From positions 29,966 through 93,965 of the forward strand of contig JACKFY010000003.1 of assembly GCA_020632235.1 (NCBI GenBank): DNA of 64,000 nucleotides, given 5' to 3'. The notes under the pieces are model-generated. The model did no database searches and was not told the origin of the DNA. It worked only from the letters and a program-made list of their open reading frames with translations. Shown here piece by piece: positions 1,762-30,190 of the stretch. Every line of letters begins with the position of its first letter. Position 1 is the first letter of the stretch. The DNA is from Pseudomonadales bacterium. GTDB lineage: Bacteria > Patescibacteriota > Microgenomatia > UBA1400 > PJMF01. Both the position numbers and the translations under genes were made by a program.

Positions 1762-2685
1762 ATGAAGGATCTCCCCCAGCTGTCAAATAGGGTTGCTGCT
1801 CAGTTTCGTTTGGTATCGCGGCATCTCTATATGAATCCTTTAGAGAAGTGTAATCTCAAGTGTAAAATATGCTACACCAAAAAAACTTCTCCAATTTTAT
1901 CAAATGCTCAGATACTCGCGTTTATTGATCGATACCAAGATGCTCACAAGCTTCAGACTGTGACGTACTGTGGGGGCGAGGTGTTTGCTCTGCAGAGCTT
2001 TCCTGATCTGGTTAACCAAACAGTAGCGCGCGGCGCGATGGTGCAGGTTATTACCAATGGTACGCTTGACCAACTCGACCTCCTCGCGTACCCAAATAGA
2101 GTTAACTTGATTGTGTCTCTTGATGGTCTGGAGGAGTATCATGATGCAAATCGCGGGCTCGGTAACTTTCAAAAAAGCATTGCCTTTTTGCAGAAAGCAC
2201 AACGCCGAGGATTTCACACCGAGGTTTTTTCTATAGTGACCAAGCAAAATTATCTCCAGCTGAATAACTTTGAAGAGTACTTGCAGACACAACTCAGCCA
2301 GCCAGTAGAAGTAACCTATCATCCACGAAAACCCCCTGCGTATCTCGATCATCACCCTGTTTCCAACATTACAGGTGAGACAGAAGGTTTTGATTTTCTC
2401 TCTGACACAGAGCTGGTCACCTTGATGAAAGAGAAACAAACATTTCCACCCAAACAGCTGGGGTGTTACCAACTGGGGGTGATGTCTGACGGAAAGGTGT
2501 ATGGGTGTTGCGAAGGCATTACCCCACTTGGAGTCATGGATGACGAGATTGCCGACTTGCTTGTGCATCTCCGCCAGCGATTGATTAAATGGGAGCGCGA
2601 GAACACTCTCGCAAACTGTCTTGGATGCTCACAACCAGAGTTTGTGTGCGGGATCAAGCGGCAGCTGTTTTTGCTCCAGAATTGA
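1762..2685 (+). CDS. Radical SAM protein with a C-terminal SPASM/twitch-like Cys cluster
   Basis: CNLKCKICY matches the CxxxCxxC radical-SAM motif near the N-terminus. The C-terminus carries CX13CC and NCLGCSQPEFVCG (CX2CX6C). The start could instead be M24 at 1831. Confidence 0.65.
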   Translation: MKDLPQLSNRVAAQFRLVSRHLYMNPLEKCNLKCKICYTKKTSPILSNAQILAFIDRYQDAHKLQTVTYCGGEVFALQSFPDLVNQTVARGAMVQVITNGTLDQLDLLAYPNRVNLIVSLDGLEEYHDANRGLGNFQKSIAFLQKAQRRGFHTEVFSIVTKQNYLQLNNFEEYLQTQLSQPVEVTYHPRKPPAYLDHHPVSNITGETEGFDFLSDTELVTLMKEKQTFPPKQLGCYQLGVMSDGKVYGCCEGITPLGVMDDEIADLLVHLRQRLIKWERENTLANCLGCSQPEFVCGIKRQLFLLQN

Positions 2686-2691
2686 CGTACC

Positions 2692-2766
2692 TGTGAAACA
2701 AGTATCTGTGGTGTGAAACACTGTGTAAAAGCCTGGTGTGAAACAAAAGTGAGTATATTTTATACT
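2692..2766 (+). promoter_or_regulatory. Promoter region with three direct copies of TGTGAAACA followed by a TATACT -10 box
   Basis: TGTGAAACA at 2692-2700, 2712-2720 and 2737-2745 (the latter two as TGGTGTGAAACA), then 15 nt, then TATACT at 2761-2766. The same 9-mer-N14/15-TATACT architecture appears at 15604-15632 and, as TGTCAAACA, at the atp promoter. Confidence 0.4.
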
Positions 2767-2868
2767 CTCGTGAAAAACCCCTCTGCCACGCTTCGCTCTG
2801 GCGTCTCCCTTACAAGGAAAGTGTTAACTCCCTCTTTTACAAGAGGGGATGATGCTACACTACCTGAC

Positions 2869-3840
2869 ATGCAGCAGTCACCAGAATTCCTTCGCCAGCA
2901 AGAACACGTTATTAGCCTCATTCGCCAGTTTTTCTCCGCGAAAGGGTTTCGCGAGTTTATGACTCCTGTTTTGCAAGACGCCCTGCCACTGGAAGAAAAC
3001 TTGTACTCATTCCAAACTACCTGGCAAACGACCGAGGGAAACAAGCAGCTTTATCTTCCCACTTCCCCCGAGAGTTATTTGAAGAAACAACTCGCCACCG
3101 GCTCGGGCAACTGTTTTTCCGTTGCTCATTCGTTTCGCAATTTAGAGCAAGCGGGCACCCATCACTCGCCAGAGTTTTTGATGTTGGAGTGGTATCGCGA
3201 GGGAGCCAACTGGACAGACATCATGCACGACGTGCAAGATTTGTTTGCATATATTTTGTCCACCGCCTCACTCCCTTCTTCATTACAGTTTCAACGTTGG
3301 GAGACGTTATCGCTCGACAGCCTTTTTCAGGAACGCCTTGGCACATCACTCAAGACAGTGTGTGAAAGAGACGCGCTTTTTGAGTTAGCTCACTCTCTTG
3401 GATATACAACTGCTGATGCAGCCTGGAGTCAGATGTTTGATCAGGTATTTTTAAACGAGATCGAGCCACACCTTCCCCAGACGCCCTTCTTTCTAGTAGA
3501 CTTTCCTGTCCGCATCTCTCGGCTGTGCCAAGTGCAATCAGACAAACCGTGGCTAGCCGAGCGCTTTGAGGTCTATGCTGGTGGGCTGGAGCTAGGTAAT
3601 GGCAACACCGAAGAGCTTGATCATAAAGCAGTATTGGCTTATTTTAAAAACGAGGAAGAATGCAGAGGCAACGTTGGTATTTCTAGTCATCCAATAGACG
3701 CAGAGTTCGTGAGCTCACTCGAAGCACTCTCGCACACAGGAAAAAGCTATGCCGGGATTGGGATGGGGGTGGGGCGGGTGGTGGAGGTAGTAAGAGAAAA
3801 TTCTTGTAAGAAAATCATGAGGCAAGCAAAAAAATTCTGA
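2869..3840 (+). CDS. epmA: EpmA/PoxA-like protein: class II LysRS catalytic-domain paralog lacking the anticodon-binding domain
   Basis: Motifs align with the LysRS core: LYLPTSPESYLKKQLATGSGNCFSVAHSFRNLEQAGTHHSPEFLMLEWY, FEVYAGGLELGNGNTEELD and AGIGMGVGRVV. The ORF track starts at 2713, but that region holds the promoter repeats, so the likely start is M at 2869 with a GAGGGG ribosome-binding site upstream. Confidence 0.55.
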   Translation: MQQSPEFLRQQEHVISLIRQFFSAKGFREFMTPVLQDALPLEENLYSFQTTWQTTEGNKQLYLPTSPESYLKKQLATGSGNCFSVAHSFRNLEQAGTHHSPEFLMLEWYREGANWTDIMHDVQDLFAYILSTASLPSSLQFQRWETLSLDSLFQERLGTSLKTVCERDALFELAHSLGYTTADAAWSQMFDQVFLNEIEPHLPQTPFFLVDFPVRISRLCQVQSDKPWLAERFEVYAGGLELGNGNTEELDHKAVLAYFKNEEECRGNVGISSHPIDAEFVSSLEALSHTGKSYAGIGMGVGRVVEVVRENSCKKIMRQAKKF

Positions 3841-4117: not shown

Positions 4118-6163
4118 TTACTTTCCAAACACCTCTATCAAAAATGAAATATGCTCGCTGGGCTCTGTGTCAATTAAAGCAAACCCTCGCGCAACGTCAT
4201 CTCTGTTCACGCCTCCAGCAAACGAGACGTCTTTGAGTTTTTTTGTGACGGATGAGGCTTTCATGCCAGCAAAGCCCTGGGGTCGCATCAGCGAGTAGGC
4301 ATGCAGAAACCCAGACAGCTCGTCACAGGCAAACAGGTACCGCTCGATGCGTGTCTCTGGCTGTTTGCCCGTTCTGTCTGGTGCGTGGGCAGCAATAGCG
4401 TCTTTGAGTACTTGGGGGTATTCAGACAACCACTCTGTTAGCGCTTTGTTGGGGTGTTCGTCGGGAAACTCTTCCCAGTCGAGGTCATGCAAGAGTCCTG
4501 CCTGGTACCACAACTCGCTATCTTCACCGAGTGTACGCGCGTAGGCCTCCATGGCCTGGGCTACCATCTGGGCATGATGGCGCAGTTTTTCGTTTTGGAT
4601 GTGCTTGGTGAGCAGCTCTTCTGCGGCTGCCCTACTTGGCAAGTCGGCTTTTTTTGCTGGTTTGCTCGTTTCTTTGGTTTGTGATCGCACAAATTGTTGC
4701 TGGTTTTCTACCTGCCATGGGAGGGGGCGGAGGGTGGGGAAGGCGATCACCTCGCGAATACTCCAGGTGTTAGTCAAAAGCATCACCAGTCTATCGATAC
4801 CCATGCCCATGCCGCCCAGTGGCGGCATGCCGTACTCCATGACCTCCAAGAAGTCTTCATCAATAGGGTGCGCCTCATCGTCACCCGAGCGCATGCGTTG
4901 CTGCTCGCCGTCAAAAATAGCGCGCTGATCAATAGGGTCGGTGATCTCACTCCAGCCATCGGAGATCTCTTTGCCCCCTACGTAGAGCTCGTAGCGCTCA
5001 GCTAGATCTGGTTGTAATCTGTGTTTTTTTGCCAGTGGACTGACGTCTCTGGGGTAGTCAATCACCCAGGTCGGCTCAATTAAGGTGGGTGCGACCAGAG
5101 TATCAAACAAAGCAAATAAAGCTTTGCCTTTGGTAAAATCACCGATCAGTTCTTCTTGGTGTTTTTTCAATAGCGCTTGCACGCTCTCGTCATCGAGCTG
5201 ATCCCACGTGACGCCAAGGTGTGTCTCAACTAGCTGGGTCATCGTGGCGCGTGGCCAACTTCCTTCAAGAGAGACAGTTGTCTCCCCCACCTGTAGTTCT
5301 AGTGTGCCGTTTACTGTCTGTGCTAGGTGCTTGATGAGCCCCTCCAGTGTTTCGATTATCGTATTGTAGTCAGCGTAGGCGTGATACCACTCCATCATGG
5401 TAAACTCTGGCTGATGGGTTTGGTCTACCCCTTCATTGCGAAAGTTGCGGGCTATCTCAAATATTTTTTCGTACCCACCTACAATAAGTCGTTTCAGGTA
5501 GAGCTCTGGGGCTAAACGCAGGAAAAAATCGCTATCGAGCGCGTTCATGTGAGTGATGAACGGTTTGGCGTTCGTGCCCCCGTAGACAGGGTGAAAGACG
5601 GGTGTTTCAACCTCGGTAAAGCAATGCACGTCCTGTAGGTATCGCCTAATCTCTTTTTCAATCAGCCAACGAGCGTCTAGCACGCGTTTTGTTTCCGGGT
5701 TAATGAGCATGTCAACAGCGCGGTTGCGAAAGCGCGCCTCTTTGTCTTCGGCTGCGTTCCACTCGGTGGGTAGAGGGCGCAGGGCTTTGCCCAAAAAGAG
5801 AACCTCTTGAGCAAAAATAGTGATCTCGCCTGTTTTGGTAGCATCAACTGTTCCCTTGACGCCTATAAAGTCTCCTCTGTCTACCAGGTTTTTGAGCCAC
5901 GAAAACGCCTCGGGCATATCATCTTTTCGCACCATCACCTGGATGTCGCCTGTCATGTCTGCGAGGTCAAGAAAGATAACCTTGCCATGCGCTCTGATAG
6001 ACATCACCCGACCAGCGGTTTGTACTTCCTGGTCTTTTTTTGCTATGCACCCGGCTACAGTGTGTGTTTTATTGAATGCATAGGGGTGTGGATTGATCCC
6101 CAGCTCTTCGAGCTGAGAGCGTTTTTCTGTTTTGGCTTGTATGGCTTCGTCTATTCTGGACAT
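4118..6163 (-). CDS. lysS: Lysyl-tRNA synthetase with a C-terminal HD-domain phosphohydrolase extension of about 175 aa
   Basis: A full class II LysRS (OB-fold N-terminus, FRNEGVDQTHQPEFTMMEWY, GGMGMGIDRLVMLLTNTWSIREVIAFP), then a linker, then an HD domain (LRHHAQMVAQAMEAYARTLGEDSELWYQAGLLHDLDWE...). Confidence 0.9.
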   Translation of the reverse strand: MSRIDEAIQAKTEKRSQLEELGINPHPYAFNKTHTVAGCIAKKDQEVQTAGRVMSIRAHGKVIFLDLADMTGDIQVMVRKDDMPEAFSWLKNLVDRGDFIGVKGTVDATKTGEITIFAQEVLFLGKALRPLPTEWNAAEDKEARFRNRAVDMLINPETKRVLDARWLIEKEIRRYLQDVHCFTEVETPVFHPVYGGTNAKPFITHMNALDSDFFLRLAPELYLKRLIVGGYEKIFEIARNFRNEGVDQTHQPEFTMMEWYHAYADYNTIIETLEGLIKHLAQTVNGTLELQVGETTVSLEGSWPRATMTQLVETHLGVTWDQLDDESVQALLKKHQEELIGDFTKGKALFALFDTLVAPTLIEPTWVIDYPRDVSPLAKKHRLQPDLAERYELYVGGKEISDGWSEITDPIDQRAIFDGEQQRMRSGDDEAHPIDEDFLEVMEYGMPPLGGMGMGIDRLVMLLTNTWSIREVIAFPTLRPLPWQVENQQQFVRSQTKETSKPAKKADLPSRAAAEELLTKHIQNEKLRHHAQMVAQAMEAYARTLGEDSELWYQAGLLHDLDWEEFPDEHPNKALTEWLSEYPQVLKDAIAAHAPDRTGKQPETRIERYLFACDELSGFLHAYSLMRPQGFAGMKASSVTKKLKDVSFAGGVNRDDVARGFALIDTEPSEHISFLIEVFGK

Positions 6164-15321: not shown

Positions 15322-15603
15322 TTAACACGGCGTCAAGTTGCCGAGGCGTCCCACCATTGCATCTAGTGCCTTGATTGCAGTGAGCTGCTTGTTATTTGGA
15401 TAGTGTTTTCTCCACACATAGCACGACCAATCGTCAACTATCTCGGCACATATGGTTTCTCCTGCAACAAACGAGAGTTTTCCGCAGTGGAAGTTGTTGA
15501 GAGCGCGGTAGGTCTGCATGAGTGCGTGCTGTAGCACGACTTCTGCATATGTTTCACGCGTGCAACAGTGTAATGATCTGGTCGCAGTATGTCGTGAAAC
15601 CAC
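15322..15603 (-). CDS. Small Cys-rich hypothetical protein, divergent from the C39-like peptidase gene
   Basis: 93 aa ORF with 7 Cys in normal-GC DNA. No recognisable family, so it may be spurious. Confidence 0.2.
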   Translation of the reverse strand: MVSRHTATRSLHCCTRETYAEVVLQHALMQTYRALNNFHCGKLSFVAGETICAEIVDDWSCYVWRKHYPNNKQLTAIKALDAMVGRLGNLTPC

Positions 15604-15632
15604 TGTGAAACAGAGCTGATGTAAGCTATACT
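15604..15632 (+). promoter_or_regulatory. Putative promoter: TGTGAAACA, then 14 nt, then TATACT
   Basis: ccactgtgaaacagagctgatgtaagcTATACT sits 10 bp upstream of the ATG at 15642. The inverted partner GTTTCACG at 15551-15558 pairs with CGTGAAAC at 15592-15599. Confidence 0.35.
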
Positions 15633-15641
15633 ATTCTTTGC

Positions 15642-16280
15642 ATGGCTCAGCACATCGTTCCTTTTTACCCAAACACGCCAGATAACACCCATTGCTACCA
15701 AGCGGCACTGAAAATGGTGCTCAAGTTTTTTTGGCCAGAGGAAGCATACTCTTTGGATGAGCTGGACGAAGTAACTGCCAAGGTTGATGGGCTGTGGACG
15801 TGGCCGATTGCCGGACTACTGTGGCTACAAGAAAAACACGCCGAGGTGAGCATGATAGATGCATTTGATTTTCATGCATTTGTGAAAGACGGAGGGCAGT
15901 ACTTGCTTGATTTTTATGGAGATGAGGTGGGTAGCGCGCAAATTGCCCACAGCGATATAGAGCAAGAGATTAGTTTTGCCCAGCAGGCTTTAAAAACGCT
16001 TTCGATAGAAAAAAGGAGTGCTCGTATGGCAGATGTGAAGGCACTACTTGAGGATGGATTTCTGGTTATCTGTAACGTGAATGCTAATGCACCCAACAAC
16101 AAAGAGGGGTACACAGGGCACTTTGTCGTTATCACGGGGTTTGACGAGAATGGGTTGTATATGCATGATCCTGGATTACCACCACGGCGCAATCGACGGG
16201 TGAGCTATGAGCACTTTACCTCTGCTTGGGCGTATCCAGATGAAACAGCGAAGTGGTTGATTGCGGTGAGGAAAGTGTGA
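15642..16280 (+). CDS. Peptidase C39-like (papain-fold) domain protein
   Basis: Carries the Cys motif NTHCYQAALKMVL and the His motif YTGHFVVITGFDENGLYMHDPG, typical of C39/C39_2 peptidase domains. No ABC transporter partner nearby. Confidence 0.55.
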   Translation: MAQHIVPFYPNTPDNTHCYQAALKMVLKFFWPEEAYSLDELDEVTAKVDGLWTWPIAGLLWLQEKHAEVSMIDAFDFHAFVKDGGQYLLDFYGDEVGSAQIAHSDIEQEISFAQQALKTLSIEKRSARMADVKALLEDGFLVICNVNANAPNNKEGYTGHFVVITGFDENGLYMHDPGLPPRRNRRVSYEHFTSAWAYPDETAKWLIAVRKV

Positions 16281-29815: not shown

Positions 29816-30190
29816 TCAAAATAACCATGTAATATTTTCAAAGTGCTCGATGGTGTCACCCTGCAGCGTCACGCAATCAAAGCGATAGTTTTTGTGAATG
29901 GCGTGTGCTTTGACGTATGCAGCAGCACAGATTTGGAGGGAGCGGAGTTTTTTCTGGGTAATGCTGCTACTGGGGTGAGCAGGAGCATGCTTTGATCGTG
30001 TCTTGACCTCGATGAATACCAGTTCGTCTCGGTCGTTGTCCCAGGCGATAATATCTACTTCGTGGTTTTTGTAGCGCACGTTTTGCTCTACTACACGATA
30101 TCCTTGTGTTGTTAAAAAGCGAGCAGCTGCACCTTCCCCTCTAGAGCCAGTGGAGGTATTATGCGCTCTTTGTTGTTTGGGCGACAGCAC
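29816..30190 (-). CDS. yraN: YraN/UPF0102 family endonuclease (start uncertain)
   Basis: [49 protein letters not shown] matches the YraN core. The track ORF extends to 30394, overlapping rplS. A likely start is GTG near 30190, or ATG at 30262. Confidence 0.6.

Follow-up and report, generated by a model that had tools for sequence, protein, structure and literature searches.

Before it can rescue ribosomes that have stalled on polyproline, elongation factor P (EF-P) usually needs to be modified. A review of January 2026 (PMC12856214) gave no more than three routes of EF-P modification in bacteria, and in a 2024 survey of 3,000 genomes 51% of the main lysine-type EF-P family was classed as 'unknown modification' (PMC11388002). 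Here we describe two neighbouring genes, one for a radical S-adenosylmethionine (radical-SAM) enzyme with a SPASM/twitch-like C-terminal domain and one for a ligase related to EpmA, in a stretch of 64,000 nucleotides (positions 29,966 to 93,965 of the forward strand of contig JACKFY010000003.1, GenBank assembly GCA_020632235.1), which as a whole is termed the window below and on which all coordinates are given. On balance, we believe that the two form a conserved module that modifies the loop-tip lysine of EF-P in Microgenomates-type Patescibacteria, related to but distinct from the EpmA/EpmB/EpmC system. The pair is a solid lead that can be tested, not a demonstrated pathway.

The described systems closest to this pair are of several kinds. 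The EF-P-(R)-β-lysine ligase EpmA (PoxA/GenX/YjeA) of E. coli and Salmonella: this is a lysyl-tRNA synthetase (LysRS) core without the anticodon-binding domain. The ligase of the pair has the same architecture, finds EpmA as its best match in hidden Markov model (HMM), PDB and Foldseek searches and, like it, is associated in genomes with efp genes whose products bear a Lys at the loop tip. It differs in scoring under both curated EpmA cutoffs, in aligning a Gly with the gate residue Ala298 and an Asn (GNGNTE) with the Phe of ANGFHE, and in having as its conserved partner a SPASM/twitch-like radical-SAM enzyme instead of EpmB. The lysine 2,3-aminomutases EpmB (YjeK) and KamA: as in EpmB, the radical-SAM enzyme of the pair is coupled genetically to an EF-P-type ligase and may supply its donor amino acid; however, the homology is limited to the radical-SAM core, and the C-terminal domain holds Fe-S cysteines in place of a module binding pyridoxal 5'-phosphate (PLP). 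The SPASM/twitch enzymes (anSME, SkfB, SuiB, BtrN, BlsE, MoaA): with these the enzyme has in common a partial TIM-barrel core and a Cys-rich auxiliary domain starting CX8-GX4-C (Foldseek E 1e-14 to 1e-9). It departs from them in its low identity (~16-21%), a sub-threshold score with the SPASM HMM, a CX2CX6C element without the CX3C and the final Cys, the lack of a leader-peptide recognition domain and the coupling to an aminoacyl-tRNA-synthetase-like ligase.

Two further comparisons concern the logic of the pathway. In PylB/PylC, which offer an analogy only, a radical-SAM enzyme that works without PLP converts lysine by rearrangement into a non-canonical amino acid, which is then joined to the ε-amine of lysine by an ATP-dependent ligase. 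However, the BioB/HydE-like PylB and the ATP-grasp enzyme PylC are not homologous to the proteins of the pair, and the acceptor there is free lysine, not a protein. EpmC (YfcM) and the 5-aminopentanol pathway of B. subtilis (YmfI, YnbB and GsaB, with YfkA as accessory) are likewise enzymes that serve the loop-tip lysine of EF-P; unlike the pair, EpmC is O2-dependent and is not a radical-SAM enzyme, and the Bacillus route operates without an EpmA-type ligase. The accessory protein YfkA is annotated as a radical-SAM protein. The yfkA gene affects the level of EF-P modification (PMC5885033). In the literature on EF-P or EpmA in combination with SPASM, radical SAM, Patescibacteria, Microgenomates or the candidate phyla radiation we found no description of the pair.

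The two genes form a conserved pair

1762..2685, plus strand: gene for the radical-SAM enzyme with a SPASM/twitch-like C-terminal domain (307 aa; PF04055, 53.7 bits)
2869..3840, plus strand: gene for the EpmA-like ligase, a LysRS class II catalytic core without the anticodon-binding domain (323 aa; PF00152 only)

A search seeded with the radical-SAM protein, with one genome per GTDB species, recovered 61 loci, 52 of which extend at least 1 kb downstream; the ligase gene is found immediately downstream and on the same strand in 43 of these 52. Metagenome contigs were searched independently with the ligase as seed, which gave 80 loci; 68 of them have enough upstream sequence, and the radical-SAM gene lies immediately upstream in 64 of the 68 (in one more it lies at 985 bp). 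The adjacency noted by the first-pass annotation of this DNA is thus kept in relatives by two independent counts. Clustering of all flanking open reading frames (ORFs) in the 61 loci yielded variable neighbours only: there is no other conserved neighbour, and no recurrent carrier-protein, precursor-peptide or other gene. The exceptions in the ligase set are L139, which encodes a canonical-type relative of EpmA, and L133 and L134, which encode a divergent EpmA-like variant. The gene for this variant stands head-to-head with that for an 818-aa double ATP-grasp protein (LAL_C2 + Dala_Dala_lig_C) in the regions L134:3467-7011 and L133:1-3299.

The ligase is a relative of EpmA with an altered amino acid pocket

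The mechanical ORF of the ligase gene begins at GTG 2713 and the NCBI annotation at GTG 2770; the latter start would add 33 residues that are present in no homologue, and all homologues begin at ATG 2869. The first-pass annotation had described a LysRS-core paralog without an anticodon-binding domain, which Pfam and Foldseek bear out; the span that it gave, 2713-3840, is that of the mechanical ORF and gives way to the start at 2869. Pfam detects tRNA-synt_2 (PF00152, aa 5-309) alone, with no OB anticodon domain (no PF01336). Among curated families EpmA is the best-scoring: TIGR00462 (genX) gives 233.8 bits (cutoff 286.9) and NF006828 gives 215.5 (cutoff 264), while lysS models reach 121-146 bits (TIGR00499 121, vs a cutoff of 427.6). 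The best matches among PDB sequences are Salmonella PoxA (137 bits) and E. coli GenX (130), with LysRS at 97 or less, and a Foldseek search with the AlphaFold model (pLDDT 91.9, with a low-confidence C-terminal tail) places 3g1z, 3a5z and 3a5y on top at a TM of about 0.8 and 29-32% identity. The class II motif 2 Arg and motif 3 Arg are kept, as are the Glu and Tyr residues by which LysRS binds its lysine. The family is found in more than 100 loci at 35-57% identity, with the same domain truncation in more than 100 orthologues.

3589..3612, plus strand: pocket segment ELGNGNTE (aa 241-248), with Asn246 in place of an aromatic residue (vs ELANGFHE in EpmA and EISDGWSE in this organism's LysRS)
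3751..3777, plus strand: motif 3, AGIGMGVGR (aa 295-303), with Gly298 at the position of E. coli EpmA Ala298 (alignment to SGVALGVDR of 3a5z)

Two positions distinguish the amino acid pocket. At the first, EpmA has Phe, this organism's LysRS has Trp and the EpmA-like ligase has Asn246; the Glu of the same segment, which we take to be the residue that binds the ε-amine of lysine in LysRS (LysU structures), is retained. The second lies in motif 3, for which the consensus of the patescibacterial family is AGIGLGxDR, with G296, G298 and G300 invariant; this organism's LysRS (GGMGMGIDR) has Gly at the gate, as in the family, and the ligase of the window reads GVGR where GxDR is usual and has an unusual C-terminus. 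In EpmA, A298 is reported to be the backbone-selectivity gate, and A298G flips the preference from (R)-β-lysine to (S)-α-lysine (bioRxiv 10.64898/2026.07.07.736966). The combination of gate Gly and pocket Asn is seen in 97 of ~103 complete radical-SAM-linked ligases. The ligase of L139, which has no radical-SAM neighbour, is of the canonical type with gate Ala and pocket Phe, and is the only such relative recovered; those of L133 and L134, also without a radical-SAM neighbour, have gate Gly and pocket Cys. The pocket covaries in this way with the radical-SAM neighbour, in a comparison behind which there are few independent exceptions. As aligned, it appears to be neither EpmA-like nor LysRS-like.

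4118..6163, minus strand: housekeeping LysRS (OB + class II core) with an HD domain fused at its C-terminus, given for context only (NF001756, 582 bits vs cutoff 468; PF01336, PF00152, PF01966)

As a complete LysRS is encoded at 4118-6163 and the EpmA-like ORF has the class II core only, the latter is distinct from the housekeeping enzyme and is not a fragment of it. That the two genes adjoin by chance and the EpmA-like ORF is a decaying duplicate of lysS is very improbable. Such an origin could account for the true lysS lying 280 bp downstream on the opposite strand, for the unusual C-terminus with its GVGR and for the low-confidence tail; set against this, the ORF is intact with its class II motifs kept, it is only 27% identical to the resident LysRS, its truncation recurs in the more than 100 orthologues, and the pairing persists across varied genomic contexts. 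The truncated lysS pseudogene for which the first-pass annotation had left room is at odds with the same intact ORF and motifs, with the conservation across loci and with the genuine lysS adjoining it.

The radical-SAM protein is SPASM/twitch-like by predicted structure

1849..1872, plus strand: codons of the CxxxCxxC motif (C30, C34, C37; CNLKCKIC) for binding of the radical-SAM [4Fe-4S] cluster, read from the sequence and invariant in alignments
2464..2649, plus strand: C-terminal Cys cluster, a shortened SPASM/twitch-type auxiliary Fe-S motif (C235-x8-G-x4-C249-C250, then C286-x2-C289-x6-C296)

The sole Pfam domain of this protein is Radical_SAM (PF04055, aa 25-159), detected at 53.7 bits against a cutoff of 29.5. 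In family alignments C30, C34 and C37 are invariant, and so are, across 78 homologues, C70, C235, C249, C250, C286, C289 and C296, together with the segment T-x-HPRKP-x-x-YL-x-x-HP. These homologues are ~60% identical and come from Roizman-, Woese-, Gottesman-, Pace- and Cerribacteria and from metagenome-assembled genomes (MAGs) labelled 'Patescibacteria group'. The CxxxCxxC protein with a C-terminal Cys cluster that was first read from this DNA is hence present at 1762-2685, with six invariant Cys in that cluster.

The NCBIfam matches of the protein cover the core only and are to SPASM/twitch-type families, all far under their cutoffs; the KamA-family models TIGR00238 and TIGR03821 are absent from the best 25 of its 53 matches with E < 0.01. 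With the AlphaFold model (pLDDT 92.5) Foldseek returns SkfB first (E = 1e-14, TM 0.68), then SuiB, anSME and BlsE at E of about 1e-11, and further viperin, MoaA and EpeE; no lysine aminomutase is among the top 50. A profile search of PDB sequences similarly recovers SkfB, BlsE, YydG/EpeE, MoaA and viperins. Both the NCBIfam matches listed and the top Foldseek matches accordingly agree with the first-pass view that the enzyme is not of the EpmB/KamA type.

Its SPASM/twitch affinity, also proposed there, is upheld by fold (SkfB, SuiB, anSME) and not by domain models. The SPASM model TIGR04085 matches the isolated C-terminal domain weakly (14 bits, E = 0.05; cutoff 27 bits), and a scan of that domain gave no match to PF13186 (SPASM). 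Measured against the seven-Cys SPASM motif CX9-15GX4C...CX2CX5CX3C...C, the protein has the six invariant Cys and is missing the CX3C and the terminal Cys, so that the motif is a shortened one. The overall fold of the predicted structure falls in the SPASM/twitch structural class; the model thus suggests a protein that is of SPASM/twitch type by structure only, not by domain HMM.

The family is compact: of 1.84 billion representatives searched, only 34 clusters at 50% identity reach E <= 1e-30. No fusion of the radical-SAM protein to the ligase was seen among these representatives, the longer matches covering the radical-SAM core only. With 307 aa the protein comprises the core and the auxiliary domain alone and has no RRE-type leader-binding domain. 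The NCBI annotation of the identical protein begins at M24; ATG 1762 is the better start because M24 would drop the invariant H21-Y23 and a confidently modelled helix.

Several further observations were made on this family. Public annotation apparently miscalls both starts at this locus, that of the radical-SAM gene (1762-1830) and that of the EpmA-like gene (2770-2868). Three homologues (P0035, P0078, P0363) have insertions of 40-150 aa at conserved positions, those of P0035 and P0078 with the string 'VHFSDSA.RAR' in common; intervening sequences that are translated, or mobile insertions, could explain these. A sister family of ~290 aa (P0373, P0375, P0376, P0381, P0385, P0390) shares CNLxCxxCY, TNGTIDRLDEF, CCEG and the C-terminal CxxC, and is without the HPRKP...HHP segment. 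The taxonomically informative close homologues are nearly all from Patescibacteria; the source MAG bears the label 'Pseudomonadales'.

Genomic association with efp

For counts of efp, identical loci were collapsed into 121 distinct loci groups. An efp gene is found within the flanks in 9 of these 121 and directly beside the pair in 8. Under a Poisson model with a flank of ~7.6 kb per locus and one efp per ~1-Mb genome, ~0.9 would be expected by chance in the flanks and ~0.2 in adjacency (P = 6e-7 and P = 1e-10, respectively). Two arrangements are seen: in L002, L006, L010, L015 and L112 efp and the radical-SAM gene are oriented divergently; radical-SAM gene, ligase gene and efp follow one another on one strand in L111, L120/L121 and L135. 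In tblastn with the EF-Ps of E. coli and B. subtilis as queries, no efp was found in the 64 kb of the window; efp genes of related loci served instead for reading the loop residue. On the question whether this residue is Lys or Arg, raised by the first-pass annotation, four translated EF-Ps all give Lys at the loop tip, in the context (V/N)-(S/N)-P-G-K-G-S-A-F (SPGKGSAF). The PGKGP signature of unmodified EF-Ps (PMC12856214) is absent from these four.

We therefore consider it quite likely that the pair acts on EF-P. Of the two substrates that the first-pass annotation had entertained, an EF-P and a carrier protein, the former is favoured, because efp is adjacent far above chance and no recurrent carrier-protein gene is found near the pair. 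The pair could instead have another acceptor, such as a carrier protein, some other protein or a small molecule, with the radical-SAM enzyme maturing the product in the manner of a RiPP (ribosomally synthesized and post-translationally modified peptide) or carrier-ligase system; this is unlikely. It would sit well with the modest share of loci that have an adjacent efp (~7%) and with the absence of one from the window, with the peptide maturases that are the nearest structural relatives of the radical-SAM protein and with a ligase that misses the EpmA cutoffs. Against it stand the excess of efp neighbours over chance, including the uniform order of radical-SAM gene, ligase gene and efp on one strand, a flanking-ORF clustering in which no further gene recurs, be it for a carrier protein, a precursor peptide or anything else, and the lack of an RRE-type domain in the radical-SAM protein. 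To our knowledge, moreover, the known amino-acid:carrier-protein ligases are SerRS-like, not LysRS-like.

KamA-family genes in Patescibacteria

Using an EpmB sequence as a probe for KamA, in tblastn at low stringency, we found KamA-like genes near the pair in three loci that make up two distinct groups: in L013/L085 the gene is convergent with the ligase gene at a distance of 217 bp, and in L019 it lies ~4.6 kb upstream of the pair. Two occurrences among 121 distinct loci are at the level of chance (P = 0.23), and there is hence no evidence that the KamA-like genes belong to the module. The probe found no KamA-like gene in the window, nor did it match the ORF at 1762-2685. These genes belong to a large family that is widespread in Patescibacteria and falls under every curated NCBIfam cutoff, that of EpmB included. 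A Ddl-like ATP-grasp gene adjoins the KamA-like gene in two of three loci looked up, the third having neither that gene nor the pair; the radical-SAM/ligase pair was not seen in any of the three, and no long contig was seen to be common to the matches of the pair and the best 120 KamA-like matches.

These data bear on whether the pair belongs to canonical EpmA/EpmB β-lysylation, with a KamA-family enzyme encoded elsewhere making (R)-β-lysine and the SPASM/twitch-like enzyme being an accessory tailoring factor or unrelated. We hold this to be improbable. It draws on the wide occurrence of KamA-like genes in Patescibacteria, on the closeness of some of them to the pair (L013/L085, L019) and on EpmA being the closest known relative of the ligase. 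However, the gate of the ligase is an invariant Gly, which in E. coli EpmA abolishes the use of β-lysine and gives use of α-lysine; the KamA-like genes miss even the EpmB cutoff and have as their recurrent partner the Ddl-like gene, not efp or the ligase gene; their presence near the pair matches chance; and the conserved neighbour of the ligase gene is the radical-SAM gene, not a KamA gene.

The KamA-like gene (observed at L019:2313-3404, L013:10007-11188, L142:8980-11116 and L146:8895-11101) is often directly preceded and overlapped by the gene for the Ddl-like ATP-grasp ligase. The two constitute a second uncharacterised aminomutase-plus-ligase pair.

A proposed mechanism and its difficulties

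In the module that we favour, with EF-P as the acceptor, the ligase would adenylate an amino acid with ATP and transfer it to the ε-amine of the EF-P lysine (SPGKGSAF), by analogy with EpmA. Given the Gly at the Ala298 gate and the Asn in place of the pocket aromatic, the donor would not be (R)-β-lysine; it may be L-α-lysine or a modified α-amino acid that keeps its terminal amine. The radical-SAM enzyme is an obligate partner of the ligase, and two roles can be envisaged for it. (a) It would make the unusual donor of the ligase from a common amino acid, as a PLP-independent, non-homologous counterpart of EpmB, with a logic like that of PylB/PylC. (b) It would tailor the aminoacylated side chain of EF-P without O2, as a counterpart of EpmC, for example by epimerisation, oxidation or C-C/C-S chemistry; here the invariant CC doublet and C70 could supply a hydrogen-atom donor, as in radical epimerases. 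Role (b) is suggested by the nearest structural relatives of the enzyme, which act on peptides and proteins. Given the EF-P assignment, we slightly favour (a), mainly because the pocket covaries with the radical-SAM neighbour, as it would if that enzyme set what the ligase loads; (b) is nearly as plausible, and a role other than these two would be unlikely.

We propose more tentatively, as a possibility, that the pair constitutes a fourth, chemically distinct means of EF-P activation in Microgenomates-type Patescibacteria, in which an α-type EpmA-like ligase and an O2-independent radical-SAM enzyme would together install a tag that is not beta-lysyl, rhamnosyl or 5-aminopentanol. Such a tag could be a new non-canonical amino acid made without PLP, or could arise by editing of a protein-bound lysyl group (epimerised to D-lysyl, oxidised or cross-linked).

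Several points weigh against a two-enzyme EF-P module. First, ten radical-SAM loci (nine by the 52-locus count), all of one subclade (L016, L025, L028, L030, L034, L042, L044, L049, L050, L052), lack a downstream ligase gene. Except in L016, the radical-SAM gene of these loci follows uppP (nine of the ten), often with the gene for a 418-aa MFS-like membrane protein after it, and one member of the subclade is the complete genome CP011212, labelled 'TM6 GW2011_GWF2_28_16'; the radical-SAM enzyme may therefore have a role that is independent of the ligase. Second, the ligase is under both curated EpmA cutoffs. Third, only ~7% of loci have an adjacent efp, and none was found in the window. Fourth, KamA-family genes do exist in Patescibacteria, so that the cells may have β-lysine or another β-amino acid at their disposal without the radical-SAM enzyme having to stand in for EpmB. 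Finally, the argument from the pocket concerns two positions placed by alignment, not by a ligand-bound structure, and acceptor, donor and radical-SAM reaction are all inferred.

The intergenic spacer and other features of the locus

2686..2868, plus strand: spacer of 183 bp between the radical-SAM and ligase genes, with three TGTGAAACA direct repeats and a -10-like TATACT at 2761-2766

The spacer holds three exact copies of TGTGAAACA (2692-2700, 2712-2720, 2737-2745), all inside 54 bp at spacings of 20 and 25 bp; the window as a whole has four copies, against 1.03 expected. The third copy contains a -35-like GTGAAA, with TATACT 17 nt further on, and from this consensus match the ligase gene appears here to have its own promoter in the spacer. 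The fourth copy (15604, in the region 15590-15641) has GTGAAACCA-c before it and then, after 14 nt, TATACT; this arrangement (15604-15635) lies directly before the start codon (ATG) of a gene for a C39-like peptidase (15642-16280), which is unrelated to the pair. As the same layout recurs there, TGTGAAACA looks like a promoter-region element of the organism and not one specific to the locus, and its occurrence together with a -10-like box at two genes suggests a shared promoter or regulator element. Of the repeat-bearing promoter described by the first-pass annotation, the three repeats are exact, the promoter is a consensus match and the length of the gap is atypical: in relatives the intergenic gap has a median of ~41 bp (as measured between high-scoring segment pairs), six pairs overlap, and only 4 of the 111 gaps reach the length of this one. 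Most relatives have the two genes abutting or overlapping, with co-transcription probable.

A riboswitch or leader RNA in the spacer was considered and is ruled out: Rfam gave only tRNAs over the whole window and nothing in the spacer with permissive settings, and the RNA fold of the spacer is no better than that of shuffles (z = -0.81).

In the resident LysRS the HD/HDIG phosphohydrolase domain (PF01966) spans aa 529-616; the fusion could couple synthesis and hydrolysis of nucleotides of the diadenosine tetraphosphate (Ap4A) type. An HD-only relative is encoded ~1.7 kb downstream of the ligase gene in L055.

Implications

The ligase is a natural relative of EpmA with an altered amino acid pocket, which makes it relevant to the re-engineering of EpmA (bioRxiv 10.64898/2026.07.07.736966), and its partner offers a small and compact SPASM/twitch-like radical-SAM family for study of the reaction that it catalyses. 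The organisms themselves form a large radiation, mostly anaerobic and uncultivated, whose genomes are minimal; the pair is a concrete candidate for the means by which they modify EF-P, and the retention in such genomes of two dedicated genes argues for the importance of what they do.

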